Source: an uncultured delta proteobacterium (GTDB lineage: Bacteria > Desulfobacterota > Desulfobaccia > Desulfobaccales > 0-14-0-80-60-11). From it: a stretch of 64,000 bases of DNA. Location of the stretch: positions 864,001 through 928,000 of the forward strand of contig CAWETI010000002.1 of NCBI GenBank assembly GCA_963812015.1. Reading direction: 5' to 3'. This document shows positions 31,867-49,967 of this stretch, one piece after another. The notes beneath the pieces are model-generated. The model was given only the letters and a program-made list of their open reading frames with translations. It did no database searches and had not been told where the DNA came from. Each line of letters begins with the position of its first letter. The stretch's first letter is position 1. Made by a program: the position numbers and the translations under genes.

Positions 31867-31887
31867 GTAGGGCGGGCATTGCCCGCC
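31867..31887 (+). repeat. GTAG-type REP palindrome
   Basis: GTAG-GGCGGGCA-T-TGCCCGCC, with a compensatory change relative to 19460. Confidence 0.75.
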
Positions 31888-31974
31888 ATCCATAGTGTGC
31901 CGTGCTCACACGATGCCAGACACAGGCGAGATGCTTGCGGCGCCATCTGGTTTCAAACTTTGAGGAGGTAAATC

Positions 31975-33498
31975 GTGACGCCCGAAGCAACCTACCAGTG
32001 GCTGGTGGAACACAGCCGGGAGACCGCCTACTTGAAATCCATGGGCCAGGTGCTGGGTTGGGACCAGCGCACCCAGATTCCGCCCAAAGGCCATGAACAC
32101 CGCCACCAGCAGTTCGCCATGCTGGCCAAGTGGGTTCACGCCCGGGCCACCGATCCCCAGGTGGGGGAGGCCCTGGCCCGGGTGGAGGCCTCGAACCTGG
32201 TGGCAGACGCAGGCGCCATGGCCGCGGTCAACGTCCGGGAGTGGCGCCGGGATTATGACCGGGCCACCAAGATCCCCCAGGAGTTGGCCGTGGCCCTGGC
32301 CAAAGCCACCGCCGCAGGGGAAACGGCCTGGGAGCGGACCCGGCCGGACAACGACTGGGAGACCTTCAAGCCCTTCCTGGTCACGGTCGTCGCCCTGAAG
32401 CGGGAGGAGGCCCAGGCCCTGGGCTATGCCCGGGAACCCTATGACGCCCATCTGGATGATTATGAGCCGGGGGAGACCGCTGCGGGGCTGGCCCCCGTCC
32501 TGGCGCAGCTCCGGGAGGCCCTCATCCGAATCCTGGCGGCGGTTCAGGGCAGCGGGCGGCGGCCCCAGGGTGAGGTGGTGCGCCGGCATTTCCCGGTGGG
32601 CGACCAGGAGCGCTTCGCCCGGCTGGCGGCCCAAGCCATCGGCTACGATTTTGCCGGCGGCCGCCTGGACCCCACGGCCCACCCCTTCTCGGTGGATATC
32701 GGCCCGGGGGATGTCCGCATCACCACCCGCTTTGACGAGCACTCCTTCAGCCAGGCCTTTTTCGGCACCTTGCACGAAACCGGTCACGCCCTCTATGACC
32801 AGGGGCTGCCGGCGGAGCACTGGGGCACCCCCCGGGGGGACGCCGTCTCCCTGGGCATCCACGAATCCCAGTCCCGGCTGTGGGAAAACCTAGTGGGGCG
32901 TTCCCTGGGATTCTGGCGGTTTTTTTATCAGCGGGCTCAGGAAGTCTTTCCCGCACTCCACGGCATACCCCTGGAGGTCTTCCACTTTGCGGTCAACGAA
33001 GTCAAACCGTCCCTGATCCGCACCGAGGCCGACGAAGTGACCTACAACCTGCACATCCTCTTACGCTTCGAACTGGAGCGGGCCTTGATGAACGGCGACC
33101 TTGAGGTGGAGGACTTCCCGGGGGCCTTCAACGACAAGATGCGCGCCTTTCTGGGGTTGACGCCTCCCGGCCCCGGCCAGGGCGTCATGCAGGACATCCA
33201 CTGGTCAGCCGGGCTGTTCGGGTATTTCCCCACCTATACCCTGGGGAACCTGTACGCCGCCCAGTTCTATGCCCGGGCCGAGGCCGAGCTGGGCCCCTTG
33301 GAGGAGCGGTTTGCCAGGGGCGAGTTTGCCCCGCTGCTCACCTGGCTCCGGGAGAAAATTCACCGCCAGGGCAACCGCCTCTGGGCCCGGCCCCTGGCCA
33401 AAGAGGTCACGGGGGAAGACCTGGACCCCCGTTACCTGGTGCGCTACCTCCAGCGCAAATTCGGGGCGCTCTATGAGGTGCCGGGAGGTGACCTTTAG
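31975..33498 (+). CDS. Carboxypeptidase, peptidase M32 family
   Basis: [36 protein letters not shown]. Confidence 0.95.
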
Positions 33499-33630
33499 CG
33501 ATGCCCGCTGGCCGGGAGACCGGGATCCGGGCCATGGGCGCCTAACGGTTCGGCCCCTATCCCCGCCTCACCCGGGGGGTGGCGAGATAATCTCCTTGAC
33601 TCATCCGGGCGCAGTGGTTAGCCTGAACCC

Positions 33631-34851
33631 ATGCGCGGTTACTGGGTGGCGATTCCCACATATTGGACCTACCCCGGGGGTGAGGGGCCGGAAGCGATCG
33701 TCTTTGATCATCCCACGCCCCTGGACACGCCGGGGACCCTGCGGCGGACCCTGGAGAGCCTGGTCCCTTTGGCGGCCCAAGGGGTGGAGGTGGGGGTGGT
33801 GGCCGCGGCCACCGCGCCTGCTCTTGAGGCCGCGGTGGCCCGCCGGGTCCGGGAGGTGATCGAGTCCCCGCCGCTGCCGTATCCGGTGAGATTGTTTGCG
33901 GCCTCGCATCTCGGCCGGCTCCGGGATTTCTGCCGGACCCGGGAGCGGGCGGAGTGGCTGCCCCTGCTGTCTCTATCCGGCTATGCCCAGATCCGCAATA
34001 TTACCTTGATTCTCGCCACCATCTGCGGCGCGGGGGTGTTGCTCAGCCTGGACGACGATGAGGTGATCGCCGACCCGGATTTTTTGGCCAAGCTGGAAGA
34101 GGATGTGGCCCGGCTCGGTGAGGAGCACCCCGTCTTCGGGTTGGCCGGGATTTACCGGAACCAAGACGGCGGGGTGCTGCTCCCCGAACCCGCCGCCACC
34201 TGGGCCGTGGCCTGGCCCAAGATGCGCTGGCTGAACGCGGCGCTGACGGAACTGGCGCTGACCGGCCCCCGCCTGCAACCCACGCTCCTGGGGTTCGGCG
34301 GCAACCTGGCGGTGCCGGCGGCCCTGGGACGTTTGCTCCCCTTCGATCCCGTCATCACCCGGGGGGAAGACACGGACTACCTCTTGAACGCCCGCATGTT
34401 CCAGATTCCCTTTTTCCTGGACAACACCCTGGCCATCAACCACCTGCCGCCGGACAAGCCCCACCCCACCTGGCTGAGGCTCAGGCAGGACCTGGTGCGA
34501 TTTTGCTATACCCGGTTGAAATTACGGCAGCAGGAGCCGGGTCCCGGCCGGGCCCGGGTGACCCCCGGGGACCTCAAACCCTATCCCGGCAATTTTCTGG
34601 AAGACGACCTGCCCCACCGGGCCTTTCAGAGCCACACCCTCCTGGCCCTGGACTATCTGGCCCAGGGTGACGCCGAGGGCGCCCGGCAGACCCTGATGAA
34701 CCTGGTCCTGATGGACCGGCTGGAGCAGACCGGCGCCGGAGTCTACCGGGAATATCTGAAGACCGTCAGCCACTGGCAGGCCCTCCAATCCTGGCTGGCG
34801 CTGCCAGACATCGCGGCCCAGGCCCGCCAGGCCCTGTGGGGGACGGCTTGA
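33631..34851 (+). CDS. GT-A fold glycosyltransferase-like protein
   Basis: RN..L, LDDDE (DxD-like), GGNL and RGED motifs. Confidence 0.65.
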   Translation: MRGYWVAIPTYWTYPGGEGPEAIVFDHPTPLDTPGTLRRTLESLVPLAAQGVEVGVVAAATAPALEAAVARRVREVIESPPLPYPVRLFAASHLGRLRDFCRTRERAEWLPLLSLSGYAQIRNITLILATICGAGVLLSLDDDEVIADPDFLAKLEEDVARLGEEHPVFGLAGIYRNQDGGVLLPEPAATWAVAWPKMRWLNAALTELALTGPRLQPTLLGFGGNLAVPAALGRLLPFDPVITRGEDTDYLLNARMFQIPFFLDNTLAINHLPPDKPHPTWLRLRQDLVRFCYTRLKLRQQEPGPGRARVTPGDLKPYPGNFLEDDLPHRAFQSHTLLALDYLAQGDAEGARQTLMNLVLMDRLEQTGAGVYREYLKTVSHWQALQSWLALPDIAAQARQALWGTA

Positions 34852-35939
34852 GCGGCCCGCCGGAGGTGATCCGGCCCGAGGCTTGGGGGCGCGGGGCCCG
34901 GCTCCCCACCCTGGGGTTGATCCCCGCCGGCAGCTTTGACCCTGAGGCGGTAACCCGCCTGAAAGAAGCGGAGCGGGTGACGGTGCACCTGGTCTTCCCG
35001 GTGGGGAGCGCCCGGGAGGCCGGCAATCTGGGGGATCTCCTGGTGACGCTGCGGCCACTTTTTGCGCGCCTCATCGATCAGGTCTGGATCGCCTATGGGG
35101 GCGGGCGTCCCGAAGGTTTGCGGCGCCTGACAGATCTCTTTCCCCAGGTCAAGGTCTTTCCCGCGGCCAAGCGGCTCCCGCCGGACCAACAGGACGCCCC
35201 CCCGGGCAAGGGGGCGTCCATGCGGGCCTTTCTGTATCATTTGATGATGACCGAAAACGTCACCCATCCCCGGACGGTGGTGGCGTTTCTCGACGCGGAC
35301 ATCCGGCCCCCCTACTTTCATCCCCGGTGGGTAGTGGACCCGGTGGGGGCCATCCTCTGGTTTCGCACGGTGGAGGCGGCCAAGATTGTCTATCAGCGCC
35401 CCCACGGGGGCCGGTTGAACACCATGCTCCGGTCGCTTCTGGCCCTGTGCCCCCATGCCGGGGTCCAGACCCTCCAGAAGCTGGCCTACCTGTTGTCCGG
35501 GGAGATGGCCGGGACCCTGAAGTTCTGGAGCCGCCTGCCCTTCAAGACGGGCTACGGCGTGGAAACCCTGATCCTTTTGTCCTTTGCCCTGGATCAACTG
35601 GGTCTGGCGCCCGGCACCCCGGACCTGGAACACCTGGTCCAGGTCTACGTGGGCCAGATGGATCACCGCCACGCCCCCCTCACTTCCACCCCCCGTAAGC
35701 GGGGGCTGGACCAGATGGCCGGGACCGTGTTCCATACCCTGATGGAGTCCCTGATGGCGGCGGGTCTCTGGCGCTGGGCCTCGCCGCAGCTCACGCCGCC
35801 GCGGCTTTCCATCCCGGTGCCCGACGGGGCCGCCGGGGAGCCCCTGGATTGGATGGAGGTCCCCCTGGCCGACGTCACCCTGCCGCCTCTGGCGGCCTGT
35901 CCCGAGGTGCAGGCGCGCCTCACGCCGGGGGACCCCTGA
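34848..35939 (+). CDS. Glucosyl-3-phosphoglycerate synthase-like glycosyltransferase
   Basis: GKG..M, FLDADI, Y.RP.GGR, LSGEMAG, TGYGVE; TTGA overlap with the upstream gene. Confidence 0.75.
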   Translation: MSGPPEVIRPEAWGRGARLPTLGLIPAGSFDPEAVTRLKEAERVTVHLVFPVGSAREAGNLGDLLVTLRPLFARLIDQVWIAYGGGRPEGLRRLTDLFPQVKVFPAAKRLPPDQQDAPPGKGASMRAFLYHLMMTENVTHPRTVVAFLDADIRPPYFHPRWVVDPVGAILWFRTVEAAKIVYQRPHGGRLNTMLRSLLALCPHAGVQTLQKLAYLLSGEMAGTLKFWSRLPFKTGYGVETLILLSFALDQLGLAPGTPDLEHLVQVYVGQMDHRHAPLTSTPRKRGLDQMAGTVFHTLMESLMAAGLWRWASPQLTPPRLSIPVPDGAAGEPLDWMEVPLADVTLPPLAACPEVQARLTPGDP

Positions 35940-36961
35940 TGCGCCTAGCCCAGATCGCGCCTCCCTGGATTCCGGTGCCTCCCGTGACCTACGGCGGCAC
36001 GGAACTGATGGTGGCTGGCCTCATCCAGGGGCTCACGGCCCGGGGGGTGGAGGTCTGGCTGTTCAGCGCCGGGGATTCCCGCCTCAAAGTGCCCCAATAC
36101 GGGCATTTCCTCCACTCGTTCTGGCCGCCGGACAAGTTTTCCGAGAATCTCCACCTGTCCCACGCCTTCGCCCGGCTCCGGGAGCAGCCGCCTGTGGTAA
36201 TCCACTCGCACCTGGAGTCCGCCGCGGGTTTCTGGGCCCTGGCCCCGGCCGCGCCCCTGGTGATTACCATCCACACGCCCCTGTTCCCCATGAAACGGGA
36301 CTATCTCCTCAGTTTCCCCAAGGTGCATCTGGTGGCAGTGAGCGCCTTTCAGTCCCGGCAGTTGGAGGGGCATCCCCGTCTCCACCTGATCCCCCACGGC
36401 CTGGACCTGGCGGATTATCCCTTTCAGGCCGCCAAGGAAGATTTTCTGCTGTTCCTGGGCCGCATCTATCCTGACAAAGGTCTCCACACGGCCATTCGCC
36501 TGGCCCGGGAGGCCGGGGTGCGGCTGTTCATCGCCGGGCCGGTTTTCGAGCCGGACCGGCCGTATTTTGACGGCCAGATCCGGGACCGCATCGACGGCGA
36601 GCAGATCGTCTATTTAGGGCCGGCGGATCATCCCCGCAAGGTGGATCTGCTGAAGCGGGCGAAGGCATTGGTGCTGCCCCTGGAGGTGGACGAAACCTTT
36701 GGGCTGGCCATGCTGGAGGCCATGGCCTGCGGCACCCCGGTTTTGGCCTACGACCGGGGGGCGGTGCCCGAAGTAGTGGCCCACGGGGAAACCGGGTTTG
36801 CCGTAAGCACTTACGAGCAGTTGCGGGACAGTCTCGGGCGCCTGGCCGGTTTGGACCCCCACCGCTGCCGGGCGCACGTGGCGCTAAACTTTTCCCGGGA
36901 CCGCATGGTGGCGGCTTATCTGAAACTGTACGACGAGATGGGTCGGGAGGTAAAGAGATAG
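35939..36961 (+). CDS. Glycosyltransferase family 4
   Basis: PP..YGGTE, FLGRI..DKG, ETFGLAMLEAMACGTPV; TGATG overlap. Confidence 0.9.
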   Translation: MRLAQIAPPWIPVPPVTYGGTELMVAGLIQGLTARGVEVWLFSAGDSRLKVPQYGHFLHSFWPPDKFSENLHLSHAFARLREQPPVVIHSHLESAAGFWALAPAAPLVITIHTPLFPMKRDYLLSFPKVHLVAVSAFQSRQLEGHPRLHLIPHGLDLADYPFQAAKEDFLLFLGRIYPDKGLHTAIRLAREAGVRLFIAGPVFEPDRPYFDGQIRDRIDGEQIVYLGPADHPRKVDLLKRAKALVLPLEVDETFGLAMLEAMACGTPVLAYDRGAVPEVVAHGETGFAVSTYEQLRDSLGRLAGLDPHRCRAHVALNFSRDRMVAAYLKLYDEMGREVKR

Positions 36962-37072
36962 TAAGGGGAGCATGAAATTGATGGATATCGGGCGGTTCTC
37001 ACCCCACCCCTACGGTGAGGCAAGTCATTACTCGGAGCAGAAAATGGGTTCCACTAGTTTATAAGCTGATTG

Positions 37073-37166
37073 AAAATCCCCCTAAATCCCCCTTTTTCAA
37101 AGGGGGACTTTCTAAAAGATTCTGCGCGGTTCCCCCCTTTGGCAAAGGGGGGATAGGGGGGATTTT
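37073..37166. repeat. Intergenic double-hairpin repeat
   Basis: AAATCCCCCTAAATCCCCCTTTTTCAAAGGGGGA...TCCCCCCTTTGGCAAAGGGGGGATAGGGGGGATTT. Confidence 0.6.
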
Positions 37167-37296
37167 TATAAGGGTTCAGCTTAAAAAAGTAATCTCTTGA
37201 ATGCTCTGATTGATCAGTCTTTGGGTGAAGGCATAAGTAGCCGTAGCTTCCGGGCTTTACTTCTCGGGCGACCCGGTTTATTCTGCAAACGGGCCT

Positions 37297-38613
37297 ATGG
37301 TTATCTCGCGGCTGGTGCTGAAATTAGGGCTGGTAAGATTTGCCACCTCGCTTTTGGTGGTGTTGCTGGCCAACGTCCTGAACCGGGTGTTGATCGTGGA
37401 CCTCATGGTGCCCGCGGCCCTGGTCACCTTCAGTTTTGCCTTCCAGCACGTGATGACGCCTGTAGGGCTGGTCACCGGCTATTTTTCCGACACCCATGCC
37501 CTCAGGGGCCGTCACCGGGCCCCCTATATCTGGGGGGGCATGCTGCTCAGCGTGGCGGTCATGCCGTTCTTTCCGGATTGGGCCCTGGAGATGGGAGCCC
37601 AGCCCCACAGCCGTGCCCTTCTGTACCAGGGGGTGCTCCTGTTTTCCCTGTTCGGCATCGGCACCACCGTGTCCGCCACCGCCATCAACGCCCTCCTGGT
37701 GGACCGGGTCCCGGAGCCGGACCGGGGCGGCGCCCTGACCATGGTGTGGATTTTTACCCTGCTGGGGTTTATTGTGGGCTCCGCCCTCACCGAGGTGCTG
37801 TTCCCGGCTTTTGATCCCGCCAAGATCCAGGAGCTGTTTGGAGTGGTCACCCTGGTGGTGGTGGCGGTCACCCTCTGGGGCGCCTGGGGCATCGAACCGC
37901 CCTGCCAGGCCGCGCCCAATCACCAGCACGGCCAGATGCAGTTGTGGCCCACCTTAAAGTTTCTGGCCAGCAACCGCCAGGCCCTGGCTTTTTTTGCCTT
38001 TCTGGGGACCACGATTTTCTTTTTGGCTATTCAAACTTTCCTTTTGACCGCGTACGGCGGGGAAGTCTTGGCCCTGCCGGTGGCGGCCACCAGCCGTTTC
38101 GGGGTTTACACCACCTACGGCATCCTGGCGGGCATGGTGGGGGTGCATGTGCTGCTCAGCCTGCGGCACAATTGGGGAAACCGGGCCATCCTGGCGGTGA
38201 GCCTGGTGATGGGCGCCGCGGCCTTTGGCCTCTTGAGCCTGACCTCCTTTAGGCCTGACCCGACCTGGGGTATCTATGCCCTCTGCCTCCTGGGGCTGGC
38301 CCGGGGGTTTTACAACGTCGGGCTGTCCCACCTGACCATGAGCATGGCCCACCCCAGCTTCAGCGGGATCTTCATGGGGCTGTGGAATCTGGCCAGCGGC
38401 CTGGCCCTGGCCGCGGGGGAAATGGCCGGGGGATTTCTCAAAGACCGGCTGGTCTCCTTTTCAGGCAGTCAGGCCGGGGCGTATGGCTGGGTGTTTTTGC
38501 TGGAAGGGGTGGGGCTGCTGGCCTGCCTGCTGTTCCTGGTGCCTCTGAGCCTGAAGCAATACCGGCCCCAACTGGTGGTGCTGGTGGCCGAGGAGAAGCT
38601 GAAACCGTATTAA
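37297..38613 (+). CDS. PucC/BCD-family MFS transporter
   Basis: LNRVLIV.L.VPA, G..SD....RGR.R.PYI, YGG.V and G.FMGLW motifs; about 12 TM. Confidence 0.75.
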   Translation: MVISRLVLKLGLVRFATSLLVVLLANVLNRVLIVDLMVPAALVTFSFAFQHVMTPVGLVTGYFSDTHALRGRHRAPYIWGGMLLSVAVMPFFPDWALEMGAQPHSRALLYQGVLLFSLFGIGTTVSATAINALLVDRVPEPDRGGALTMVWIFTLLGFIVGSALTEVLFPAFDPAKIQELFGVVTLVVVAVTLWGAWGIEPPCQAAPNHQHGQMQLWPTLKFLASNRQALAFFAFLGTTIFFLAIQTFLLTAYGGEVLALPVAATSRFGVYTTYGILAGMVGVHVLLSLRHNWGNRAILAVSLVMGAAAFGLLSLTSFRPDPTWGIYALCLLGLARGFYNVGLSHLTMSMAHPSFSGIFMGLWNLASGLALAAGEMAGGFLKDRLVSFSGSQAGAYGWVFLLEGVGLLACLLFLVPLSLKQYRPQLVVLVAEEKLKPY

Positions 38614-38745
38614 GCTGGGGGAAGAGAGACTGGGGAGAGGTAACCAGGGGCTTTTTCATTTTTTCGTAAGGGCCCCCGCTCCTCACTAACTTTGCAGCAG
38701 TCTTACAAGAGGCAAAGCACAGTGGTCATGCCGGGGCGGAAGACT

Positions 38746-40089
38746 ATGACTGCCAGGGACCGGGTTAAGCGGTGGGTTTTCACCATCCTGTCCCTGCTCT
38801 TCCTGGGGTGCGGCCCGGCTCCGGAAATCCCGCCGCCCGGGACCATTACCTATACCTTTGATGCCCCCACCCGCCATTTGATCAGCCTGTTGGCCGAGAA
38901 GGCCAAGAGTTCGGTCTATAAGGACTTTGACCGAAACTTCAAGGGGCTCCTGGTGCCGGAAAGCCTGCTGCCGTATGAGCCCTTTGTGCTGGGGCTCTCC
39001 ACCGAAAGCAAGATACCTTCCGTGCTGCTCCTGGATGCTCCCTGGGTGCAGCGGTACGGGGTGGCCGGGTGGCTCTACGAACTGGAACGCACCCAGGTCT
39101 TTGACCGGTCGGAACTGGTGCCGGCGGTGGCAGAGGCCTTTTCCGTCAGTCTGACCCGGATCACCCACCGGCGGGACAAGGAGCTGGTGGCGGTGCCGAC
39201 TTACATCAAGGGCAATATCCTCTTCTGTCGCGGGGATATCCTGAAGCGGTATAAACTGGCCCCCCCCCGCACTTGGGACGAGTTAAGGACGATCTGCCGC
39301 AAGGTCCTGCCCCAGGAAAAGTCTCTGAAATACGGTCTGCTCATCCACTCCACCAATGCCGTCAATGATTTTTACCCGATTCTCTGGGGCTTCGGTGGTC
39401 AGGTCATCAATGACGCCGGCCAGTTTGTCCTGCCTCAGAAGCCTAACGCTGATGCCTTCGTGGCGGCCCTCAAAGAGTTGGTCAGCTTGCAGGGGAGCAT
39501 CATGCCGGGGCCGGCCGAACTGAAAAAATTCGAGCCCACGGAAAGCCTGCGGCAGGCCTTTTACCGAGGCCAGGCCCTGTTCATGATCAACTGGAACACC
39601 CGCATGAGAGACCTGCGTGATTTGATTGCCAAAGGCCAGGGCCAGCCCCCGGAGAGCCTCACCGACATGAGCCAGGTGTGGGTGTCCCCCATCCCGGCGC
39701 GAGCGGGCCATCCCCACCGCTATTCCACCATCGGCTCTTTTGGCTGGGCCGTCAACCGGTTTTCCGTGACCGACCCGGCGGTCATCGCCCATGCTAAGAG
39801 TTTCATTGAACTGGTGGCCGACGAACAGTTCCAGCTCCTGGCGGCGGAAACTTTGGGGCAGGTGCCGTCCCTGAAGCGGGCCCTGGAGAAGGTCACCAAT
39901 CCAGAAGTGGCGCAGGTGTACAAGTGGACCTTTGGCCAGAAGGACATGGTGATCCGGCCCCGGCCCCACAGCCGCCGGATCAACAGTGTGTTGGAAAAAT
40001 ATCTGCTGGAGGCCCTGTACGGCCGGCTGACCCCGGAGGCGGCCCTGGCCGGCGCCTTGGCGGACCTTAAAGATCAAACGACCGAATAG
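38746..40089 (+). CDS. Extracellular solute-binding lipoprotein (sugar-binding cluster-like)
   Basis: Lipobox LFLG-C, LD.PWV, AVP......LF.R.D.L......PP.TWDEL, F..G.A.F..NW, RP..; start codon uncertain. Confidence 0.8.
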   Translation: MTARDRVKRWVFTILSLLFLGCGPAPEIPPPGTITYTFDAPTRHLISLLAEKAKSSVYKDFDRNFKGLLVPESLLPYEPFVLGLSTESKIPSVLLLDAPWVQRYGVAGWLYELERTQVFDRSELVPAVAEAFSVSLTRITHRRDKELVAVPTYIKGNILFCRGDILKRYKLAPPRTWDELRTICRKVLPQEKSLKYGLLIHSTNAVNDFYPILWGFGGQVINDAGQFVLPQKPNADAFVAALKELVSLQGSIMPGPAELKKFEPTESLRQAFYRGQALFMINWNTRMRDLRDLIAKGQGQPPESLTDMSQVWVSPIPARAGHPHRYSTIGSFGWAVNRFSVTDPAVIAHAKSFIELVADEQFQLLAAETLGQVPSLKRALEKVTNPEVAQVYKWTFGQKDMVIRPRPHSRRINSVLEKYLLEALYGRLTPEAALAGALADLKDQTTE

Positions 40090-41730
40090 ATGACGACACC
40101 CTCAACCTTTATTCGTTATTCCCTGCGGAACCGGCTGTTTGTCCTGGCCGGGGCTACCTTTGTGCTCTGCGCCGTGGTCATCCTGTTGTTCTTTCCCCTG
40201 CTTAACCTCACCCTGACCGGCCTCCAGGACCGCACCCTCAAGTCCATGCAAGAGGGCACCGAAGTGGAAGCCACCACCATCGCCCGGCTGCTGGTCCTGG
40301 AATTCTCATCCCTCAAGGGGTTGATGCAGGTGACCCCGACCTCGAACACCGAGGTGGATCAGTGGATCAAGGATCTGTTGTGGGAGAAGGTCACTTTCAA
40401 TGAAATCATCGAGGGGATCGAGCTGATCCAGGGGCAGCCGGACGTCCTGGGTCAACACCTGACGTACCTGTTTTATCGCCGGGAGGCCCCGGAACTGAAG
40501 CCCATGGACGGCCCCCAGAAAATCTTGAAGTCCTTTGAGGGCCTGGAACAAGACCTCATCAACAGCATCAATGAGCAGCAGCGGGTGGACAACGCCCTCC
40601 AGGAATCCGTCAATCGGGGCCCCAAACAAGAAGGGGCGATGCTGCTGCGCTACATGCCGGTGTACGTGCTGCTGGCGGATGAAGGGGCGGTTTACTGGGG
40701 CGTGGCCAAAATCGGCATCGATACCAGCCGCATGCGCCACCTGCTCGCCCTCCAGAGCGAAGAACAGGACCGCATCCGCAATGCCATCTGGATAGAGATC
40801 ATCCTGAGCCTGTTCATCTCCGGCCTTCTGGCCATGAGCCTCATCTACGTCTGGGTGCGCTATATTACCGAGCCCTTGAAAAACCTCAGCGTGGTGGCGG
40901 CGGATTTGCGAGGCGCCAAACCCGAGGAATTCGACCTCTGGCTGGAGAACCTCAAGCGGCTGGACCCCCAGGGGCAGGTGGAGGTGATGGCGATCCAGCA
41001 AGTCCTGGAACGACTGGGCGCGGCGGTGCCCAAGCTGGGCCAGCGGCTGATTGACAGGGAAGCCCGGGCCTGCCTGGGCGAGGTGATGGCCAGGGGGCTC
41101 CCGGCCCTCAAGGCCTGGCTGGCCGAACTGCGGGATCTGGAGCAGGAACCGGCTCCCGGGGCCCCACGCCCCACCGGCGGGAAGTCGGCGGAGATTCGGG
41201 CCAGAATCGACACGGTGTTGGATGATGTCGCCCACTTTGGGGCGGACCCGCCAGGGGAGTGGGATCAACTGGATTTAACCCCGGGGCTGGAGCGGGCCTG
41301 GCGCCTGGCGACCCTAAGGCTGCCGGCGGAAGTCACGTTGCACCTTTCCCTCGCGCCCCTGCCACCGGTTTGGGGGGTGGCGGCGGAGCTGAGCCTGGCG
41401 GCGCTCTATCTCCTGACCTTTGCGGTGGAGCTGCTGCCCCCGGGCGGGGACCTGGGACTGACGGCGGAGCCCACGCCGGCGGCAGGGGTGCGCCTGACGG
41501 TCTGGGTTTCCGGAGCCCGCCGCTCGCCGGCCGAATGCCAGGAGTGGCTGAATCCTTTCACCGATCCGGACAAAATCCAGGGAAGCTTGGGTCCGGCCCT
41601 GGCCGCGGCCATCGCCGCGCAGCACGGCGGCAGTCTCACGGTGGCCCCCCGGGAACCGGGCGGCGCGGCATTTTCCCTGGAATTGCCCCCCCCGGCGGTG
41701 GCCCAGGAATCCCATGAACCTTTTATCTAA
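40090..41730 (+). CDS. Membrane sensor with degenerate histidine kinase core (pseudokinase)
   Basis: Two TM segments, periplasmic domain, HAMP-like region and HATPase-like tail (NPF, GSLG..AAAIAAQHGG.L.V...GG.AF.L.LP), but no H-box His, N-box Asn or G1 Asp. Confidence 0.7.
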   Translation: MTTPSTFIRYSLRNRLFVLAGATFVLCAVVILLFFPLLNLTLTGLQDRTLKSMQEGTEVEATTIARLLVLEFSSLKGLMQVTPTSNTEVDQWIKDLLWEKVTFNEIIEGIELIQGQPDVLGQHLTYLFYRREAPELKPMDGPQKILKSFEGLEQDLINSINEQQRVDNALQESVNRGPKQEGAMLLRYMPVYVLLADEGAVYWGVAKIGIDTSRMRHLLALQSEEQDRIRNAIWIEIILSLFISGLLAMSLIYVWVRYITEPLKNLSVVAADLRGAKPEEFDLWLENLKRLDPQGQVEVMAIQQVLERLGAAVPKLGQRLIDREARACLGEVMARGLPALKAWLAELRDLEQEPAPGAPRPTGGKSAEIRARIDTVLDDVAHFGADPPGEWDQLDLTPGLERAWRLATLRLPAEVTLHLSLAPLPPVWGVAAELSLAALYLLTFAVELLPPGGDLGLTAEPTPAAGVRLTVWVSGARRSPAECQEWLNPFTDPDKIQGSLGPALAAAIAAQHGGSLTVAPREPGGAAFSLELPPPAVAQESHEPFI

Positions 41731-42529
41731 ACTGATCAGGGCCCTGGGTGAGCTCCTGGGGCGGGCCTGGGGCCGGCTCGGCGCCCAGGTGTCCCGGATG
41801 CTGGGCATCTGCGCCCTGTTCTATCGCCTCCTCTTGGGTCTCTTCTCAGGTCCCGCCTGCCCGCGCCTGTTGTTCCGGGAACTGAGCCGCCAGGTGTATT
41901 ATACCGCCATCCGGGGGTCGTATATCCTGGTCTTTACCTCTCTCATGCTGGGTATGCTGGTGATCGTCCATGCCACCCAGCAGCTGGTCAAGGTCCAGGG
42001 GGAGGAGTTCGTCGGCTGGTTGCTGGTCACCATCGTGGTGCGGGAGGCGGGGCCGGTGTGGGCCGCCTTTTTCGTCTTGCTCCATTCCGGCGGCGTTATT
42101 ACGGTGGAGATCGGCACCATGTCGGTGAACCGGGAGATCCAGGCCTTGCAGATGATGGGCATCGACCCCCATCGTTACCTTGGGGTGCCCCGTTTCTGGG
42201 GGCTCACCATCAGCCTGTTATCCTTGTATATCCTGTGCGTGTTCGCCGCCATCATCGGGGGGTATCTCTTCGCCCAGGCGTTTGCCGAGATCTTCTGGGC
42301 CAAATTCTGGCTGTCGTTCATCAATGCCCTCCAGTGGATCGACCTGAGCGTGGGCTTTGCCAAGACCACCATCTTCGGCATGATCATCGCCACCGTGTCC
42401 ATCTATTTCGGCTTCAGCGCCCGGGACCACATGGGCGAGGTGGCCCAGAACACCTCCCAGGCGGCTATCTGGAGCCTGGTGCTCATCGGCGTCACGGATA
42501 TCATCATGACTTCGGCCTACTACCTGTGA
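41714..42529 (+). CDS. MlaE-family ABC permease
   Basis: VREAGP, G..IT.EIGTM.V..EI.AL..MGIDP.RYL.VPR. Confidence 0.88.
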   Translation: MNLLSKLIRALGELLGRAWGRLGAQVSRMLGICALFYRLLLGLFSGPACPRLLFRELSRQVYYTAIRGSYILVFTSLMLGMLVIVHATQQLVKVQGEEFVGWLLVTIVVREAGPVWAAFFVLLHSGGVITVEIGTMSVNREIQALQMMGIDPHRYLGVPRFWGLTISLLSLYILCVFAAIIGGYLFAQAFAEIFWAKFWLSFINALQWIDLSVGFAKTTIFGMIIATVSIYFGFSARDHMGEVAQNTSQAAIWSLVLIGVTDIIMTSAYYL

Positions 42530-42565
42530 GCGGCCCGGGCCGGCCTTGAGGCGCAACGGCACCCT

Positions 42566-43288
42566 ATGCTACATTATGCCTTGAACCTGGATATGGTCAC
42601 CCTGTCGGAAGATGCCGCGGCCTGGCCCGCGCCCCTGTCCCTGGCGGTGGCCCTCAACGAGGTCGTGCTCATTGAGGGGGTCGGCCCGGCCGCCGGCGAC
42701 TCCCTGCTTAAAGTTGCGGCCACGCTTGCCTCCCCGGTGGCGGGAAGCGCCACCCATTGGGGCCGGGACGCCGCAACGCTCCCCCGGGAGGAGTTTTATC
42801 GCCTCCGGCGCCGCATCGCCTTGATCTCCCCCCGGCAGGTGCTCCTCCACCGTCTCAGCCTGGGGGAGAATATCGCCCTGGGTCCCTGCTATCACCTGGG
42901 ATACACGGAAACGGAGGCTTTGGCGGCCCACGCCGACTTATTGGCGCACCTGAAACTCCAGGCTCACCTGGACCGGTTCCCGGCCCAGGTGTCCGCCCCG
43001 GTCTATGCCCGGGCGGTGTGGGCCCGGGAGCTGGTAAAAGGGCCGGAATTGATCCTGGCGGCGATCTCCGGCGACCTGGCGGCCACCGGCGAGGCCGCCG
43101 GACTGGCCACGGTACTCCGGGATTACCTGACCGGGAGCGGCGCCGCGGCGCTGCTGCTGGGCGAGTCCCTGACATCCTTTTACCCCCTGGGGCATCGGCT
43201 CATGGGGCTGGAATCGGGGCAACTCCGGCCACGGCCGCTCCCGGAACACCGGGCCCGCCTCCTCACCGCGTACCTGCCCCTGGTTTGA
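42566..43288 (+). CDS. Degenerate ABC ATPase-like protein (MlaF-like)
   Basis: LRRRIA, LSLGENIAL, R.PAQ.S and ARELV..PELIL scaffold, but Walker A, signature and Walker B are all altered. Confidence 0.7.
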   Translation: MLHYALNLDMVTLSEDAAAWPAPLSLAVALNEVVLIEGVGPAAGDSLLKVAATLASPVAGSATHWGRDAATLPREEFYRLRRRIALISPRQVLLHRLSLGENIALGPCYHLGYTETEALAAHADLLAHLKLQAHLDRFPAQVSAPVYARAVWARELVKGPELILAAISGDLAATGEAAGLATVLRDYLTGSGAAALLLGESLTSFYPLGHRLMGLESGQLRPRPLPEHRARLLTAYLPLV

Positions 43289-43336
43289 CCGTGGGGGCAA
43301 GCGGCAAGGGAGATTGAGATTTTTAGAGGGCTCCAA

Positions 43337-43404
43337 GGTAACGGCCAAGATTTGCGCCGACCGCCATCAAACCAAGGTCAGATTAAATCTAACTGTCAGG
43401 GCTA
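43337..43404 (+). repeat. 68-nt dispersed intergenic repeat, copy A
   Basis: Ungapped alignment to 61882-61949, 51/68 identical by manual count. Confidence 0.7.
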
Positions 43405-43630
43405 TGTTTCCCCTGCCGGTGGGATTTGATCTGGAGCTATAATAAAAAAAATAAAAATATTGAATTTTTTGTTTTAAACCCGATATACATAACCGAACCT
43501 TGCATTTCAGGTTGGACATGGGGGCTTGAATTTCCTGGCGCCGGCTTCCGGTATCATGGCTACCGAGGGCCGCCGGGCTGGGCTTTGCAAGCGCCCGACC
43601 GGGCCGTATATTTCATTCAAGGAGTGCTTC

Positions 43631-44908
43631 GTGACCTACCCGTGTTTTCCATCACCCATCCGGAAACTTGCCCCCATGCTGCTGACCGCCCTGGTGGTGG
43701 CCTTCATCCTGGCAGGCTTCACGAACAACGGTCCCGGCGGCCTGGAGGCAGCCGAGACCGCCAAGACCGAACCCGCCGCCCCGGCCGCGACTGTTGCGCC
43801 GGCAACCCCGACGCCGATTCCCGAAGCAGCCAAGACCCCCGCTGCTCCCACGGTCCCGGCGGCTCCGCCGGTCGCGGCCCCCGCCGCCCCCGGTGCCCCT
43901 GCGACGCCGCCGCTCGCGGCTCCCGAGGCCGCGGAAACCCAGCCGGCGACTCCTGCCAAAACCAAGAAAGCGGCTAAAGGTAAGAAGGCCGCCAGGCAGG
44001 CCAAAGGGAAAAATGCCCCACCTCCCGGGAAAATAGCCCCCCCGGGCAAATACAACGCCGGCGAGGACCCCGAGTTTGCCCAACGCTGCGGCTGGCCGGT
44101 GAAAACCCCGCCGACGCTGCCGGGTTCGATCCTGCCGGGCAAGCGCATCGTCGCCTACTATGGCAACCCGCTGTCCAAGCGGATGGGGGCCCTGGGCGAG
44201 TACCCCAAGGACGAGATGCTGCGGCGGCTGAAGGGGGAAGCGGCCAAGTGGGAGAAGGCCGATCCGTCTCTGCCGGTCCAGCCCGCCCTGCACCTGATCG
44301 CGGTGGTGGCTCAGGGGGAGCCGGGCAAGGCCGGCAAGTACCGGATGGTCATGCCGGACAAAGTCATCAATGAGATGTATGGCTGGGCCAAAGAGGCGAA
44401 CGCCATCCTCTTCATCGACATCCAGACCGGCCATTCCGACATCCGCACCATCCTGCCGCGCTTTGAGTGGCTGCTGAAGAATCCCGACGTGCACCTGGCG
44501 ATGGACCCGGAGTTCAACATGATCAAGAGCGGCAAGAAGCCGGGGACCAAGATCGGCACCTATGACGCGGCGGACATCAACTATGCCGCCGGCTTCCTCC
44601 AGGAGCTGGTGAAAAAGTACAATCTCCCCCCCAAGGTGTTCATCGTGCACCGCTTCACCCGCAACATGGTCACCAATGCCGACAAGGTCACGCTCCGCCC
44701 CGAGGTCCAGATCGTCATGAACATGGATGGCTGGGGCGCCCCCTGGCTGAAGCGGGATTCCTACCGGGATTACATCGTCGCCCACCCGGTGGAGTATACC
44801 GGCTTCAAGCTCTTCTACCACAATGACACCAAGAAAGGCGACCCGCTGATGACGCCTCAGGATCTGCTGAACCTGAACCCGAAGCCGATTTACATTCAGT
44901 ACCAGTAA
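43631..44908 (+). CDS. Exported protein with Ala/Pro-rich linker and conserved C-terminal domain
   Basis: AAGGAG RBS with GTG start, signal-like segment, RIVAYYGNP, DIQ.G, HLA.DPEF, HRF, DGWG, GFKLFY. Confidence 0.75.
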   Translation: MTYPCFPSPIRKLAPMLLTALVVAFILAGFTNNGPGGLEAAETAKTEPAAPAATVAPATPTPIPEAAKTPAAPTVPAAPPVAAPAAPGAPATPPLAAPEAAETQPATPAKTKKAAKGKKAARQAKGKNAPPPGKIAPPGKYNAGEDPEFAQRCGWPVKTPPTLPGSILPGKRIVAYYGNPLSKRMGALGEYPKDEMLRRLKGEAAKWEKADPSLPVQPALHLIAVVAQGEPGKAGKYRMVMPDKVINEMYGWAKEANAILFIDIQTGHSDIRTILPRFEWLLKNPDVHLAMDPEFNMIKSGKKPGTKIGTYDAADINYAAGFLQELVKKYNLPPKVFIVHRFTRNMVTNADKVTLRPEVQIVMNMDGWGAPWLKRDSYRDYIVAHPVEYTGFKLFYHNDTKKGDPLMTPQDLLNLNPKPIYIQYQ

Positions 44909-44934
44909 GCGCGGGTCGAATCCAGACCCCGAAA

Positions 44935-44980
44935 TAAAAAGGGGAGAGGCTGTCTTGCCCAGACAGCCTCTCCTTTTTTT
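44935..44980 (+). terminator. Rho-independent terminator (bidirectional)
   Basis: A-tract, GGAGAGGCTGTCT-loop-AGACAGCCTCTCC, T-tract. Confidence 0.85.
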
Positions 44981-45450
44981 GGAAACTCGGCGGGTCGGCG
45001 GGATCAGGCCTCTTGCGCCTCGTCGCCCTTGGTGGAGGCAGGAAAATACACTTTTATTTTATACAGCTTGCATGACCAAAATTTCTCTAAAATATTAAGC
45101 AGTTGAAGGGATGATCCACAGAGTGCAACCCATTCAAAATGGTCTTTAGGAGCGCATCAATAGCAGATCGCGACACATCCGCTTTGAACTCTAATCAACA
45201 CCCTCTACCAAAAGATTGATCGGCTCCAACCCGGCCCAAAAATTTTCAAAGTCTAAGCATACCACCGATCCTGCCAAGGGAAAAATCATTGTTTTCCCCT
45301 ACCAGAAATCAGTAATTTTACCTATTTTAGCAACTGTAAAAACGTATTAAATAAGAGGCACATTAAAGATGGTTCGAAAAAATAAATCAACATGAAAAAA
45401 TTCAAAACCACAGGGAAGAATCAAAACCCATAAAAAGAAGAGGGAAAACA

Positions 45451-45615
45451 ATGGAAGGGATGAAGAATTTTTTCAGGGATGAGTCTGGTGCGACGGCGGT
45501 GGAGTACGGTCTGATGGTAGCGTTGATTTCTGCGGTTATCGTTACCACCGTTACTACCCTTGGGACTAAAGTCAAAACTTCCTTCACAACCGTGAGTAAC
45601 GCCATGGGCAGTTAA
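45451..45615 (+). CDS. flp: Flp-family (Tad-type) pilin, 54 aa
   Basis: MEGMKNFFRDESG|ATAVEYGLMVALISAVIV...; GAGGG RBS; too short for the supplied ORF track. Confidence 0.92.
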   Translation: MEGMKNFFRDESGATAVEYGLMVALISAVIVTTVTTLGTKVKTSFTTVSNAMGS

Positions 45616-45811
45616 GAAACGCCATCTCAAGTGCAGTACAAGTATTGGGGGCCTTGCTGCACCCCTGCCAGGTCCCGCAGGTTAAGACTGACTGGCATGG
45701 TTGATGAACCGGAAACAAGTCTTAATCCCTTCCCCTGGTGGGAGGGGATGGGGAAATAACTGCTGGGAAAAAAATTCTGTATCCCCCCCCGCACCCTAAC
45801 CCTTGTATGTT

Positions 45812-46973
<1,162 letters not shown>

Positions 46974-47549
46974 CATCTAACACAGTCGCTCCTCCCTCAA
47001 GGGGGTGTATTATATTGACTTTTTTCGAGGTCATCAGGGTGAGAACAGGAAACGTTCCGGCAAGATCCGGTGATCCGGGGAAAGCCGCAGCGGTATTCGT
47101 TAGCCAAAGAGAACAATCCTGCAACTTTCTGGAGTTCAGGTATGCATGAGACCTAAAGAGTCGTAGAGAACCTTTCCGGATTTGGTTCAAATCACATGAG
47201 GGACTTGAAAGGAGCTAAGGAAGTATAGTGGGTTACTTGTCAATATTAGAAAATTCTTGGAAAAGGCAAATAATTGACGATATGATCCGCATAACGAAAC
47301 GGGTGCTTGGTGGGGGGATTTGCAGATTTGACTGGTTAAAGAACATCAAAAAAGCCGGAAGAGAATATATCTTAAAAATTTCTTCTCATATTACCTCTGG
47401 ATGGAGAGGTTGTCCGGTAAACTCTTGACCATTACGGTTGATTGCCGGGCTGCAATTTAATCAGGTAATATTCTGTGAGGGCGGACCCTTGGGCCCAGGT
47501 GCTGAGGGCACACACCTGGGTCCGCTCCAGGAGAAAACGGCATTATCTG

Positions 47550-48230
47550 CTACTTGCGGCTCCGGGCGGCCTCGGAGGTGTCAGTGATGATCCGGGCCGA
47601 GACCTGCTCCATGGCTCGGCTCATGGCCTGAGCCAACCCCTCGGGGGTTTTCTCCGGCATGGGCTCCAGGACCCGGTAGTTTTTCTGGAAGACCACCCGC
47701 TGGGGAAGTTCCTCCTGGTTGGTATCCAGGAGCGTGACCGTCAGGGCCAGGGCCGCCTTCCAGCTTCCGGGCTCATCGATTTCCTGAAATTCCGCTACGC
47801 CCCCCTCCAGCTTGAACCGGTGCTTGCCACTGCCTTCCGGGCCAAACACGGCCTTAAAGAGGCCCGCATCCCTGAAGTCCCGGAGGAGATAGTCGGTGAC
47901 CAGGTAGCCGGGATTGACCCGCCAGCGGCTGTAATTATAGACCTGGCTTTTGAAGGGTTGGGGCTGGTAGACCATGGCGTTGGTGTTGAAGGCCTGGGCC
48001 ACGGAGAATAGATCCACCTTGACGGCCTCCGGGATTTTGGCTCGGCCGCCCGCCGACGGCGCCGGGTATTCCAGGATGTACTGGTTGACCAGCATGGGGG
48101 GCTTGCCGCAGCCGCTCCCCAGGAAAACCAGCAGGGCCGCCAACAGCGACAGGAGCCCGGACGGTCTGGCCAACCGACCCTGGCAGGGTCGCTTCAGGGG
48201 CTTGGGACTCGGGTCAGTCATGGCCTTCAT
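47550..48230 (-). CDS. ABC transport auxiliary lipoprotein (PqiC-like)
   Basis: Lipobox GSG-C, Y..SRW..NP motif, position directly after MlaD. Confidence 0.8.
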   Translation of the reverse strand: MKAMTDPSPKPLKRPCQGRLARPSGLLSLLAALLVFLGSGCGKPPMLVNQYILEYPAPSAGGRAKIPEAVKVDLFSVAQAFNTNAMVYQPQPFKSQVYNYSRWRVNPGYLVTDYLLRDFRDAGLFKAVFGPEGSGKHRFKLEGGVAEFQEIDEPGSWKAALALTVTLLDTNQEELPQRVVFQKNYRVLEPMPEKTPEGLAQAMSRAMEQVSARIITDTSEAARSRK

Positions 48231-49123
48231 TCATTCCACCTTTTCTTGGGGGGCTTGCCGAACAAGAGGTCCGAGGGCCGGTCATAGATCCTCTGGAGCA
48301 GCATCTCCATGGCCTCCGAACTCTGGCGCAGGTTATTGCTGGTGGATTCCAGTTCACGGGTGATCTGCCGGACATTTCCCAGGGTAGCCGGAAGCTTCAT
48401 GGCCAGGACCTGGTCGTTGACGGTGGTCAGCAGAGTGCGGGCCCCTTTGATGGCGTCCCGGGCTTCAGCCATGGTCTTATCCAGCCCGGCTTCGCCCAAG
48501 ATCTTGTCCGCCCGGGCGGTGAGCCGGTCCAGGTTGCCGGCGACGGTATCCACCCTGGCCAGGATGCTGGTGACCTGTTTGCCTTTGATAAGGTCTTCCA
48601 TGGCCTTGGTAGTGGCGATCAACTGGTTGGAAATGCCCTTGGTATCGATCTCGTTGAACTTCTTCACGATCTCGTTAACCCCGGCAACGAGTCTCTGCAT
48701 TTCGCCAGGGCGGGTCGGAATGATGGGATACTCCGAGGGAAAGTCGAGCTTGGGAGAGAGGTCCGGCTCCCCGGGTTTTTTGAGGTCCAGTTCCACGAAC
48801 ATGATGCCGGTGATCCCCGCGGCTTTCAGCTGGGCCACGGCATTTTTTTGCAGGTTATCCCGCATATTGATCTTCATAGCCACGCCGATGAGCCGGTTAT
48901 CGGGGGCCACCCGGATAGTTTGCACCATGCCCACTTCGACCCCCCGAAACTTGACGGCGGAATCCACCTGGAGGCCCTGCACCGACTCGTCGAAGTAGCT
49001 GACGTAGGTTATCCCCTTCTGAAAGTAGCTGGTGGCGCCCACCCAGATGACGGCGACGACGCCCATGAGGACGCCCAGGAGCACAAATACCCCGATGATC
49101 AGATTGGTGGATTGTTTGGCCAT
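48227..49123 (-). CDS. MlaD/MCE-family protein
   Basis: IGVFV TM, SVQGL..S.VKFRGV.VG.V, GITG..FVEL, helical C-terminus. Confidence 0.9.
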   Translation of the reverse strand: MAKQSTNLIIGVFVLLGVLMGVVAVIWVGATSYFQKGITYVSYFDESVQGLQVDSAVKFRGVEVGMVQTIRVAPDNRLIGVAMKINMRDNLQKNAVAQLKAAGITGIMFVELDLKKPGEPDLSPKLDFPSEYPIIPTRPGEMQRLVAGVNEIVKKFNEIDTKGISNQLIATTKAMEDLIKGKQVTSILARVDTVAGNLDRLTARADKILGEAGLDKTMAEARDAIKGARTLLTTVNDQVLAMKLPATLGNVRQITRELESTSNNLRQSSEAMEMLLQRIYDRPSDLLFGKPPKKRWNE

Positions 49124-49124
49124 G

Positions 49125-49922
49125 TCAGGTTCCTTGGGGCGCGGGTCCGGATGCCGGCCGGCGGTTAAAAAAGTTCAACACCCGCTGGTCGGTGGAGTGG
49201 TCCTTCAACTCCCGGGGATCGCCTTCGGCAATGATGCCCTGAGCGGTTTTGTCCAGCATAATCACCCGATGGGCGATATTAAAAATAGACTCCAGTTCAT
49301 GGGTGACAATTACCATGGTGGTTCCCATCCCGGCATTGAGGCTTTTGATCAAATTGTCCAGTTCCACCGAAGTGATGGGGTCCAGCCCGGCGGAGGGCTC
49401 ATCGAAGAAGAGGATCGTGGGGTCCAGGGCCATGGCCCGGGCTAGCCCGGCCCGCTTCTTCATGCCCCCGGAGATCTCCGAGGGCAGGTGGTTTTCATAC
49501 CCCGCCAGGCTTACCAGCCCCAGCTTCATCCTGACGATGAGTTCGACGGTGGCCGCATTCAGGTCGGTGTATTCCTGGAGGGGCAGGGCCACATTCTCCG
49601 CCAGGGTCATGGAACCGAAGAGAGCCCCGGACTGAAAGAGCACCCCGAGGTCCATGCGTAACCGGCGCAAGATGCGGTCGTTATCGGTATTGACGTCGAC
49701 GCCGTTGATCAGGACATGACCGGCGGCGGGTTTATAGAGACCGATCAGATGTTTCAGCATGGTGGACTTGCCGCAGCCGCTGCCGCCCAGGATCACCAAA
49801 ATCTCACCCTGGTTGACCTGAAAGCTGACCCGGTCAAAAATGGTATTGTTTCCGAAGCGGGCCGTCAAGTGGTCCACAACGATGACCGGGGCTTTGGTCG
49901 GGTTGGTCACAGGCGTATCCAT
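49125..49922 (-). CDS. MlaF-like ABC ATPase
   Basis: GGSGCGKST, ISGGMKKR, FFDEP, VTH. Confidence 0.92.
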   Translation of the reverse strand: MDTPVTNPTKAPVIVVDHLTARFGNNTIFDRVSFQVNQGEILVILGGSGCGKSTMLKHLIGLYKPAAGHVLINGVDVNTDNDRILRRLRMDLGVLFQSGALFGSMTLAENVALPLQEYTDLNAATVELIVRMKLGLVSLAGYENHLPSEISGGMKKRAGLARAMALDPTILFFDEPSAGLDPITSVELDNLIKSLNAGMGTTMVIVTHELESIFNIAHRVIMLDKTAQGIIAEGDPRELKDHSTDQRVLNFFNRRPASGPAPQGT

Positions 49923-49967
49923 GAGATCTTTGTACTCTGCCCGGGTTTCCCCGGGTCCTGCCTCCGC

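Follow-up and report, generated by a model that had tools for sequence, protein, structure and literature searches.

Sensor kinases that depend on a solute-binding protein (SBP), such as LuxPQ and TorT/TorS, are encoded beside the gene for that SBP. ATP-binding cassette (ABC) modules of the BceAB-BceS and FtsEX type signal rather than transport, with an active ATPase and kinase and a permease of the FtsX/MacB type; in UhpC-UhpB a protein of the major facilitator superfamily (MFS) type acts as co-sensor with a kinase; and DivL, a cytoplasmic protein with Tyr in place of His, acts within a phosphorelay network. To our knowledge, pseudo-enzymes are well studied in eukaryotic signalling and poorly charted in bacteria. 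In the accessible parts of the literature, sensor kinases next to an SBP are described as common (PMC11113362), with AgtS/AruS and CuaD among the SBP-dependent kinases encoded beside their SBP (PMC11113362, PMC10384115), DivL of Caulobacter is presented as a repurposed pseudo-histidine-kinase (PMC4211667), and single degenerate ATP sites are treated as well known in ABC proteins. Here we analyse a stretch of 64,000 nucleotides (nt) from an uncultured delta proteobacterium of the order Desulfobaccales (contig CAWETI010000002.1 of assembly GCA_963812015.1, positions 864,001 to 928,000; hereafter the window), in which an SBP, a histidine kinase (HK)-like protein, an MlaE-family permease and an ABC-type nucleotide-binding domain (NBD) are encoded in a row. 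These four genes form a conserved, selected, non-catalytic membrane module, in which two folds have stayed intact without their catalytic motifs and the genes, tightly coupled and under purifying selection, are inherited as a unit:

38746..40089, forward strand: sugar-type solute-binding lipoprotein (SBP); the open reading frame (ORF) opens at 38692, and orthologs begin at the Met of 38746
40090..41730, forward strand: pseudo-histidine-kinase (HK-like), directly abutting the SBP gene
41714..42529, forward strand: MlaE-family permease (PF02405), with a 17-nt overlap with the HK-like stop
42566..43288, forward strand: pseudo-NBD, an ABC ATPase fold without catalytic motifs, from fold model and motif mapping

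Like the SBP-dependent sensor kinases, the module has an SBP gene directly 5' of the gene for a kinase-type membrane protein with a periplasmic domain; unlike them, it has no phospho-acceptor His, a degenerate ATP-binding domain and no response regulator in the window, and the next gene is MlaE. With DivL it shares a histidine-kinase fold kept for a role other than phosphotransfer, but the pseudo-kinase of the window is a membrane protein of the periplasm-sensing type, and its partners are a dead ABC NBD and a permease. BceAB-BceS and FtsEX resemble it as ABC-type complexes with a kinase-type protein, a coupling that in our case is proposed, and the nearest relatives of its NBD are PsdA, BceA, FtsE and LolD; in contrast to these systems both enzymes are dead and the permease is of the MlaE type. 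The MlaFEDB transporters of E. coli and P. aeruginosa (6xbd, 7ch8) are similar in having an MlaE-family permease, and the NBD fold of the module, with a template-modelling (TM) score of about 0.8 to MlaF, is predicted to sit on the coupling helix; the NBD of the module, however, has no ATP motifs, and instead of MlaD/MCE and MlaB/STAS proteins, both missing, there are an SBP and a kinase-like protein. As in UhpC-UhpB, an MFS protein is conserved beside the sensor kinase, the PucC-SBP-HK order occurring in active and dead versions, although the MFS family here is PucC and the likeness is one of gene neighbourhood. A literature search that covered few subscription journals retrieved, in the text portions it reached, neither an MlaE with a wholly dead NBD, nor a membrane pseudo-kinase with an SBP, nor the two together. 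The locus matters as a case in which two unrelated nucleotide-using folds are silent together and still under selection, with a plausible active ancestral arrangement still visible elsewhere.

The coupling of the four ORFs at 38746-43288 was already part of the original prediction and is borne out: the first two genes abut at 40089/40090 and the second and third overlap at 41714-41730. In 12 of 12 orthologous loci, as in the window, the gap between the SBP and HK-like genes is 0-5 nt, and the HK-like and MlaE genes overlap (by the chosen start codons). A promoter and terminator scan gave no signal above shuffled expectation near the operon, and Rfam had no match within 30000-48000. The first protein matches SBP_bac_8 (57 bits) and SBP_bac_1 (55.6 bits) in Pfam and is akin to maltose-, trehalose- and sulfoquinovosyl-glycerol-binding proteins, its nearest solved relatives being MalE3, a trehalose/maltose-binding protein, SmoF and LpqY. 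Its lipobox Cys40 is invariant in 13 of 13 orthologs, which backs the assignment as a lipoprotein, and the mean column identity of the ortholog alignment is 67%.

The HK-like protein consists of a transmembrane helix (TM1), a periplasmic sensor domain (about residues 38-236), a second helix (TM2), a HAMP-like segment, a segment resembling the dimerisation and histidine phosphotransfer (DHp) domain without its His, and a degenerate HATPase_c domain corresponding to the catalytic and ATP-binding (CA) part. In Pfam, HATPase_c reaches 25.2 bits, under the cut-off of 26.4, and HisKA is not matched. The overall architecture is that of a kinase, since the protein aligns over its full length with the active kinases P0140, P0275 and P0147 and with those of two metagenome loci, L158 and L159, which bear HAMP, HisKA and HATPase_c. 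The motif strings quoted in the original prediction (H-box LGEVMARGLPAL, N-box AALYLLTFA, G1 VSGAR) are all found in the translation, and the F-box and G2 remnants are indeed still recognisable as NPF and GSLGP. In the alignment, the His of the H-box (GIAHEI of active relatives) is replaced by Pro in the window protein, the N-box N..NA.DA of active kinases falls on LYLLTFAVE with the loss of both Asn, and G1 DDG.G (DxGxG) falls on VSGAR. No conserved His was found in the DHp-like segment across 13 of 13 family members, and the N-box Asn and G1 are lost in all HK-like orthologs aligned. Conservation is highest in the periplasmic domain (mean column identity 0.72, 48 of 199 columns invariant) and lowest in the DHp-like segment (mean 0.49, 2 of 85 columns invariant); invariant positions of the CA-like domain are G475, G501, A506, A507, Q511 and G514. 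The absence of a response regulator, also predicted, stands: none of the 80 Response_reg matches of the genome lies inside the 64-kb window, and none was seen among the cluster ORFs scanned.

The pseudo-NBD has no Pfam match to ABC_tran and weak NCBIfam matches to DevA (57 bits) and FtsE (46 bits). Here, too, the quoted strings (Walker A GVGPAAGDS, signature VSAP, Walker B LILAA) are present in the translation. When the NBD-like family was aligned by profile with the canonical MlaF of the window (49125-49922, ABC_tran 107.7 bits), the motifs corresponded as follows:

Walker A: GGSGCGKST in MlaF, GVGPAAGDS in the pseudo-NBD, the Walker A Lys being replaced by Gly
Q-loop: Gln in MlaF, Pro in the pseudo-NBD
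Signature: SGG in MlaF, SAP in the pseudo-NBD
Walker B: D-E in MlaF, A-I in the pseudo-NBD
H-switch: His in MlaF, Glu in the pseudo-NBD

None of 14 NBD-like sequences has a Lys at the P-loop Lys position, the Q-loop, signature, Walker B and H-switch losses recur in all NBD orthologs aligned, and the former P-loop/Walker A loop is among the most variable stretches of the protein (column conservation 0.29-0.71). The NBD fold is nevertheless retained: the model has a mean predicted local distance difference test score (pLDDT) of 86.6, and Foldseek matches it with probability 1.00 and TM scores of 0.7-0.82 to MacB, YbbA, MlaF, LolD and PhnK, the BceABS structures 8g4c and 8s5g being among the matches. 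Profile matches in the PDB are PsdA, FtsE and LolD at 75-78 bits, and MlaF at 46-52 bits. The HK-like and NBD-like proteins are members of neither enzyme family, because the catalytic features that define these families were tested for and are missing. Source annotations name the pseudo-NBD orthologs as ABC ATPases of cell division or of methionine, lipoprotein or phospholipid transport. Such names presuppose an activity, which the sequences cannot support, and the annotation of orthologs named as active ABC ATPases is affected accordingly.

Both proteins are maintained well beyond the genome studied. NBD-like orthologs occur in 33 of 41 related genomes (36-74% identity), none of the listed matches being interrupted by an internal stop, and span two families of one order, a group related to sulfate reducers (NCBI-derived names: Desulfobaccales bacterium). 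The motifs are lost in 14 of 14 NBD-like sequences aligned (13 beyond the window copy) and in 13 of 13 HK-like sequences (12 beyond it). Pairwise Nei-Gojobori ratios of non-synonymous to synonymous substitution rates (dN/dS), calculated among five members of the genus, were 0.16-0.34 for the SBP, 0.17-0.31 for the HK-like protein, 0.13-0.35 for MlaE and 0.20-0.46 for the NBD-like protein, similar to those of the neighbouring GT4 (0.20-0.22) and PucC (0.15-0.28) genes. The proposal that the parallel loss has been kept by selection for a non-catalytic role is thus well supported by universal motif loss, full-length orthologs and dN/dS of 0.13-0.46. Retention of the catalytic residues in close orthologs, which had been named as evidence that would overturn this proposal, was not seen: all orthologs examined lack the motifs.

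With 177 bits to PF02405, as compared with 220-274 for five paralogs, the MlaE of the window is the most divergent of the six in the genome, and its TIGR00056 score (143 bits) is under the subfamily cut-off of 212. An MlaD hit adjoins five of the six MlaE genes of the genome and none lies beside the MlaE of the module. The original prediction that no MlaD is present therefore holds for the module itself but not for its surroundings, as a canonical Mla operon with MlaD lies about 4 kb downstream on the opposite strand:

47550-51104, reverse strand: canonical Mla operon with a STAS-MlaE fusion, MlaF (ABC_tran 107.7 bits), MlaD and an ABC_trans_aux lipoprotein

The MlaD of this separate operon (48227-49123, opposite strand) is the nearest of six MlaD matches in the genome, and the description of the module as an MCE-type transporter was inexact, because no MCE/MlaD protein belongs to it. 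The canonical operon is convergent with the pseudo-enzyme operon and has the same position in three orthologous loci (L027, L141, L157), while no such neighbour was found in the loci of other genera. In orthologous loci, MlaD was searched by tblastn with the MlaD of the canonical operon only, and matches were confined to the canonical-operon copies (L027, L141, L157). Altogether the genome has five complete Mla systems with real ATPases.

A complex of two MlaE (residues 22-271) and two NBD chains (residues 1-230) was modelled from alignments built for this analysis. The interface score ipSAE was 0.62 (three runs, 0.61-0.62), as compared with 0.00 for the best of three controls, with at least 95% of contacts shared between runs and a partner pLDDT of at least 76; of 157 solved complexes 116 attain the ipSAE mark, as do 2 of 215 mismatched pairs, counts that are only roughly valid here. 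The predicted interface joins the MlaE coupling helix 136-155 (with invariant E141, L145 and G149) to NBD residues 74-95, 105-114 and 154-158. In the NBD, mean conservation is higher at the predicted interface positions than elsewhere (0.71 vs 0.58, Mann-Whitney p 0.006), and nine of the 43 NBD columns conserved at 90% or more lie in the 27 interface positions (hypergeometric p 0.03). The model supports a docking surface of the pseudo-NBD that is still MlaF-like, with predicted docking on the coupling helix of MlaE.

Few active relatives of the pseudo-kinase were retrieved. The HK-like family profile, searched against 1.84 billion representatives, retrieved only 30 proteins at E of 1e-30 or lower, followed by generic kinases matching the cytoplasmic half alone. 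The distant full-length relatives P0140, P0275/P0145, P0147 and P0276 share the sensor signature LWEKVTFNE..IELI and retain the H-box, N-box, G1, F and G2 motifs. With P0140 as query, no related locus was found in genome or metagenome contigs; another alignment query (A5) returned 80 loci, none of which matched in the sensor domain, generic kinases having been drawn in by the FFTTK pattern. A metagenome scan with the N-terminal parts of active relatives (alignment A9) yielded 33 loci, of which 31 are of the Desulfobaccales type; where the locus was sufficiently long, MlaE followed the kinase-like gene in 20 of 22, and in 13 the NBD-like gene came next. The exceptions, L158 and L159, encode an intact kinase with HAMP, HisKA (29.5-30.5 bits), HATPase_c (80-84 bits) and the H-box GIAHEINNALSPI. 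There, PucC (35% identity), the SBP (31-33%) and the kinase are followed by a REC-PAS-HisKA-HATPase protein, without MlaE and without NBD, and the PucC-SBP-kinase trio stands without glycosyltransferases. These active relatives look like ordinary SBP-dependent sensor kinases. Searched back in the phylum sample, the L158 sensor domain matched pseudo-kinases only (9 of 401 genomes), and the sensor domain was found in 9 of 401 sampled genomes of the phylum, all of this order.

These intact-kinase loci suggest that catalysis was lost from what had been a genuine sensor system, which took on another output. The pseudo-kinase descends from, or shares ancestry with, an active SBP-associated kinase family. 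On the simplest reading of the sequences, the direction of change being unrooted, a PucC-SBP-kinase sensor feeding a phosphorelay would be the older arrangement; in the present order the kinase would have gone silent, with MlaE and a silent NBD taking the place of the relay partner. In one genus (L030, L031, L035), about 40 extra residues interrupt the DHp-like segment of the pseudo-kinase; the active kinases P0140 and P0275 have a similar insertion that aligns with it, a hint at which active kinase lineage may be closest.

Examination of the surrounding genes revealed that the four-gene core is the tail of a conserved eight-gene cluster, a larger unit that the original prediction had missed, as it had the possible unlinking of the pseudo-NBD gene and the intact kinase relatives in the PucC-SBP-HK-REC/PAS/HK arrangement. 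Its order is U406, a GpgS-like GT-A glycosyltransferase, a GT4 glycosyltransferase, a PucC-type MFS protein, SBP, pseudo-kinase, MlaE and pseudo-NBD, and the features upstream of the core are:

33631..34851, forward strand: U406, conserved protein and first cluster gene, with no Pfam, NCBIfam or PDB sequence match
34836..35939, forward strand: GT-A glycosyltransferase, distantly like glucosyl-3-phosphoglycerate synthase (PDB phmmer, GpgS 7pdo, E 6e-10)
35939..36961, forward strand: GT4 glycosyltransferase (Glycos_transf_1 91.8 bits, Glyco_transf_4 55.3 bits)
37073..37167, no strand: palindromic dispersed repeat between GT4 and PucC, resembling repetitive extragenic palindromes or miniature inverted-repeat transposable elements (REP/MITE-like); inverted repeat with 34-nt arms, 82% complementary
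37297..38613, forward strand: PucC-family MFS membrane protein (PUCC 208.5 bits, MFS_1 75.2 bits)

U406 lies upstream of the GT-A gene in 14 loci, drawn from both families and from metagenomes, and is present in 31 of 41 related genomes. The GT-A protein, syntenic across related loci, scores 54 bits to NCBIfam PRK13915, far under the cut-off of 262. The GT4 gene probably starts near 35939, although its ORF opens at 35849, because distant orthologs align from residue 31. PucC is always directly 5' of the SBP gene, including in the active-kinase loci L158 and L159. In 9 of 13 loci around NBD orthologs the order GT4-PucC-SBP-HK-MlaE-NBD is found; in the other four, which belong to two genera, the NBD-like gene stands alone, one copy (G027) lying between a CN-hydrolase gene and mutL. 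Three of these four genomes have GTA-GT4-PucC-SBP-HK-MlaE elsewhere in the genome, and where checked in these genera nothing ATPase-like follows MlaE. Of the 41 related genomes, 32 have both the NBD ortholog and the HK sensor domain and eight have neither (G016, G018, G020, G022, G023, G024, G039 and G040; six of them 99-100% complete), while G017 (86% complete) has an NBD fragment only. U406 and the SBP are absent from the same eight genomes, each being also missing from two fragmented assemblies. Since the pseudo-NBD is present or absent together with the cluster, it therefore still travels with it where it is unlinked.

The original prediction had offered a ligand-sensing module that controls a transporter allosterically, and this is plausible and the reading that we prefer. 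At its centre is a ligand-dependent conformational coupling from the SBP through the pseudo-kinase to MlaE and the pseudo-NBD, without phosphorylation or ATP hydrolysis, to which we give an even chance. An SBP-dependent sensor kinase would have lost phosphotransfer, its output being replaced by direct contact with an MlaE2/pseudo-NBD2 complex. The SBP, loaded with a putative glycoside-like ligand, would dock on the periplasmic, possibly Cache-like, domain of the pseudo-kinase; the change would travel via TM2 and the HAMP-like segment to the DHp/CA-like cytoplasmic part, and this part would act on MlaE with its docked pseudo-NBD, where it might gate or position an ATP-independent conduit for lipid or glycolipid, or report back to the glycosyltransferase/MFS part. 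The module would then be a concrete, testable case of a phosphorelay output exchanged for direct protein coupling, and it leads one to ask whether a permease of the Mla type could do without ATP. Another idea, unlikely in our view though worth stating, is that the SBP-loaded pseudo-kinase gates MlaE2/pseudo-NBD2 as an ATP-independent conduit or flippase under ligand control, the substrate being a lipid or glycolipid that the upstream glycosyltransferases make; if this is true, an ABC-type permease driven by a dead kinase rather than by ATP would be seen here for the first time.

Several points weigh against the ligand-sensing reading. In two genera the pseudo-NBD gene lies apart from the cluster, as would suit a looser association, and by sequence the protein is nearer to NBDs of the LolD, FtsE and BceA type than to MlaF. 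The complex model covers the MlaE/NBD pair only, and its pass may reflect likeness to MlaFE complexes rather than a property of this copy, because such complexes have already been solved. The fold prediction of the periplasmic domain (13 sequences) is of low confidence (pLDDT 38.3), and the Cache-like label comes from a secondary-structure pattern and a weak feature match (sCache_3_2 in 63% of one cluster, score 0.94; Stimulus_sens_1, 0.91). The dN/dS values are not independent, because the pairs are related, and we know of no precedent for an ATP-independent role of an MlaE permease. As for expression, ten metatranscriptome runs contain 5-9% of the sampled words, and contigs of four wetland RNA-library runs, 93-99% alike, cover 27-29 of 30 bins of 33600-44000, with no contig cover seen in bin 43663-44000; there is no silent control stretch, and the cover is not counted as evidence of transcription because DNA carry-over is possible.

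Other explanations keep part of the module active or remove the sensing. The MlaE of the cluster could still be an ATP-driven lipid transporter that uses a canonical MlaF, the pseudo-NBD being a regulatory or competing subunit, for example a brake at the docking site. Five complete Mla systems are at hand in the genome, one of them inside the window and placed just downstream in L027, L141 and L157 as well, and the pseudo-NBD gene is unlinked in two genera. A heterodimer of a live and a dead NBD, however, would have both composite sites damaged, because the dead NBD lacks both Walker A and signature; moreover, the model puts pseudo-NBDs on both MlaE copies, the canonical neighbour operon is unseen in the loci of other genera, and the presence or absence of the pseudo-NBD tracks the cluster and not Mla systems in general, so that we find an MlaF-driven transporter rather improbable. 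A similarly low probability attaches to a static scaffold, in which pseudo-kinase, MlaE and pseudo-NBD would sense nothing and would hold together the synthesis and export of the glycoside or glycolipid made upstream, with the SBP retaining the periplasmic product. Inheritance of the eight-gene cluster as a unit and the poor conservation of the DHp-like signalling segment would both fit such a scaffold, but the best-conserved part of the pseudo-kinase is its periplasmic sensor domain, common to active phosphorelay kinases, and in L158 and L159 the PucC-SBP-kinase trio occurs without glycosyltransferases, which suggests that the ancestral role was sensing.

Displaced catalytic residues occur in other pseudo-kinase families, and one or both proteins might accordingly retain a cryptic activity through non-canonical residues or bind another nucleotide or a second messenger. 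Both folds are intact and six CA positions are invariant, as such an activity would lead one to expect; yet the DHp-like segment holds no conserved His, the former P-loop is a very variable stretch with no conserved Lys, Ser or Thr, and the Mg-binding Asn and the G1 box are gone in all orthologs, which makes the idea very unlikely. Least credible of all, to the point of being extremely improbable, is ordinary decay, with kinase and ATPase as relics heading for loss. The NBD-like gene does have the highest dN/dS of the cluster, up to 0.46, and the whole module was not found in 8 of 41 relatives, but both families of the order have unbroken reading frames (36-74% identity), dN/dS stays well under 1, specific new positions have become invariant, and loss affects the whole unit rather than single pieces. 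Intact orthologs without the same motifs, together with dN/dS of 0.13-0.46, therefore argue against decay.

An MlaD-family match (55 bits), considered as a candidate for the missing MCE partner, lies at G000:C2:929358-929603 (L004), about 1.4 kb past the end of the window and about 22 kb from the module. It is the sole one of the six without an adjacent permease, and mirrors the single MlaE without MlaD.

The repeat at 37073-37167, about 92 nt long, contains two hairpins of the form CCCCCTTT..AAAGGGGG. It has 48 matches in its own genome, including the query site, about two dozen of them near full-length at 80-89% identity, and as far as seen is not part of the function of the module. In the four wetland RNA-library runs, contig depth in the bin of the repeat was 1218-4261, as compared with at most 241 elsewhere, and loose ends were numerous at its borders.

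Downstream of the pseudo-NBD gene, an ORF of 460 amino acids (43526-44908) was considered as a module gene and dropped, as it had no counterpart in any related locus fetched. Its N-terminal half is rich in Pro, Ala and Lys, and its C-terminal part is without known family match. Between the pseudo-enzyme and canonical Mla operons lies a transposase of the IS110 family (45978-46973; DEDD_Tnp_IS110, Transposase_20), and the stretch 44500-46000 is low in GC (0.47-0.49, as compared with 0.60-0.68 around it).

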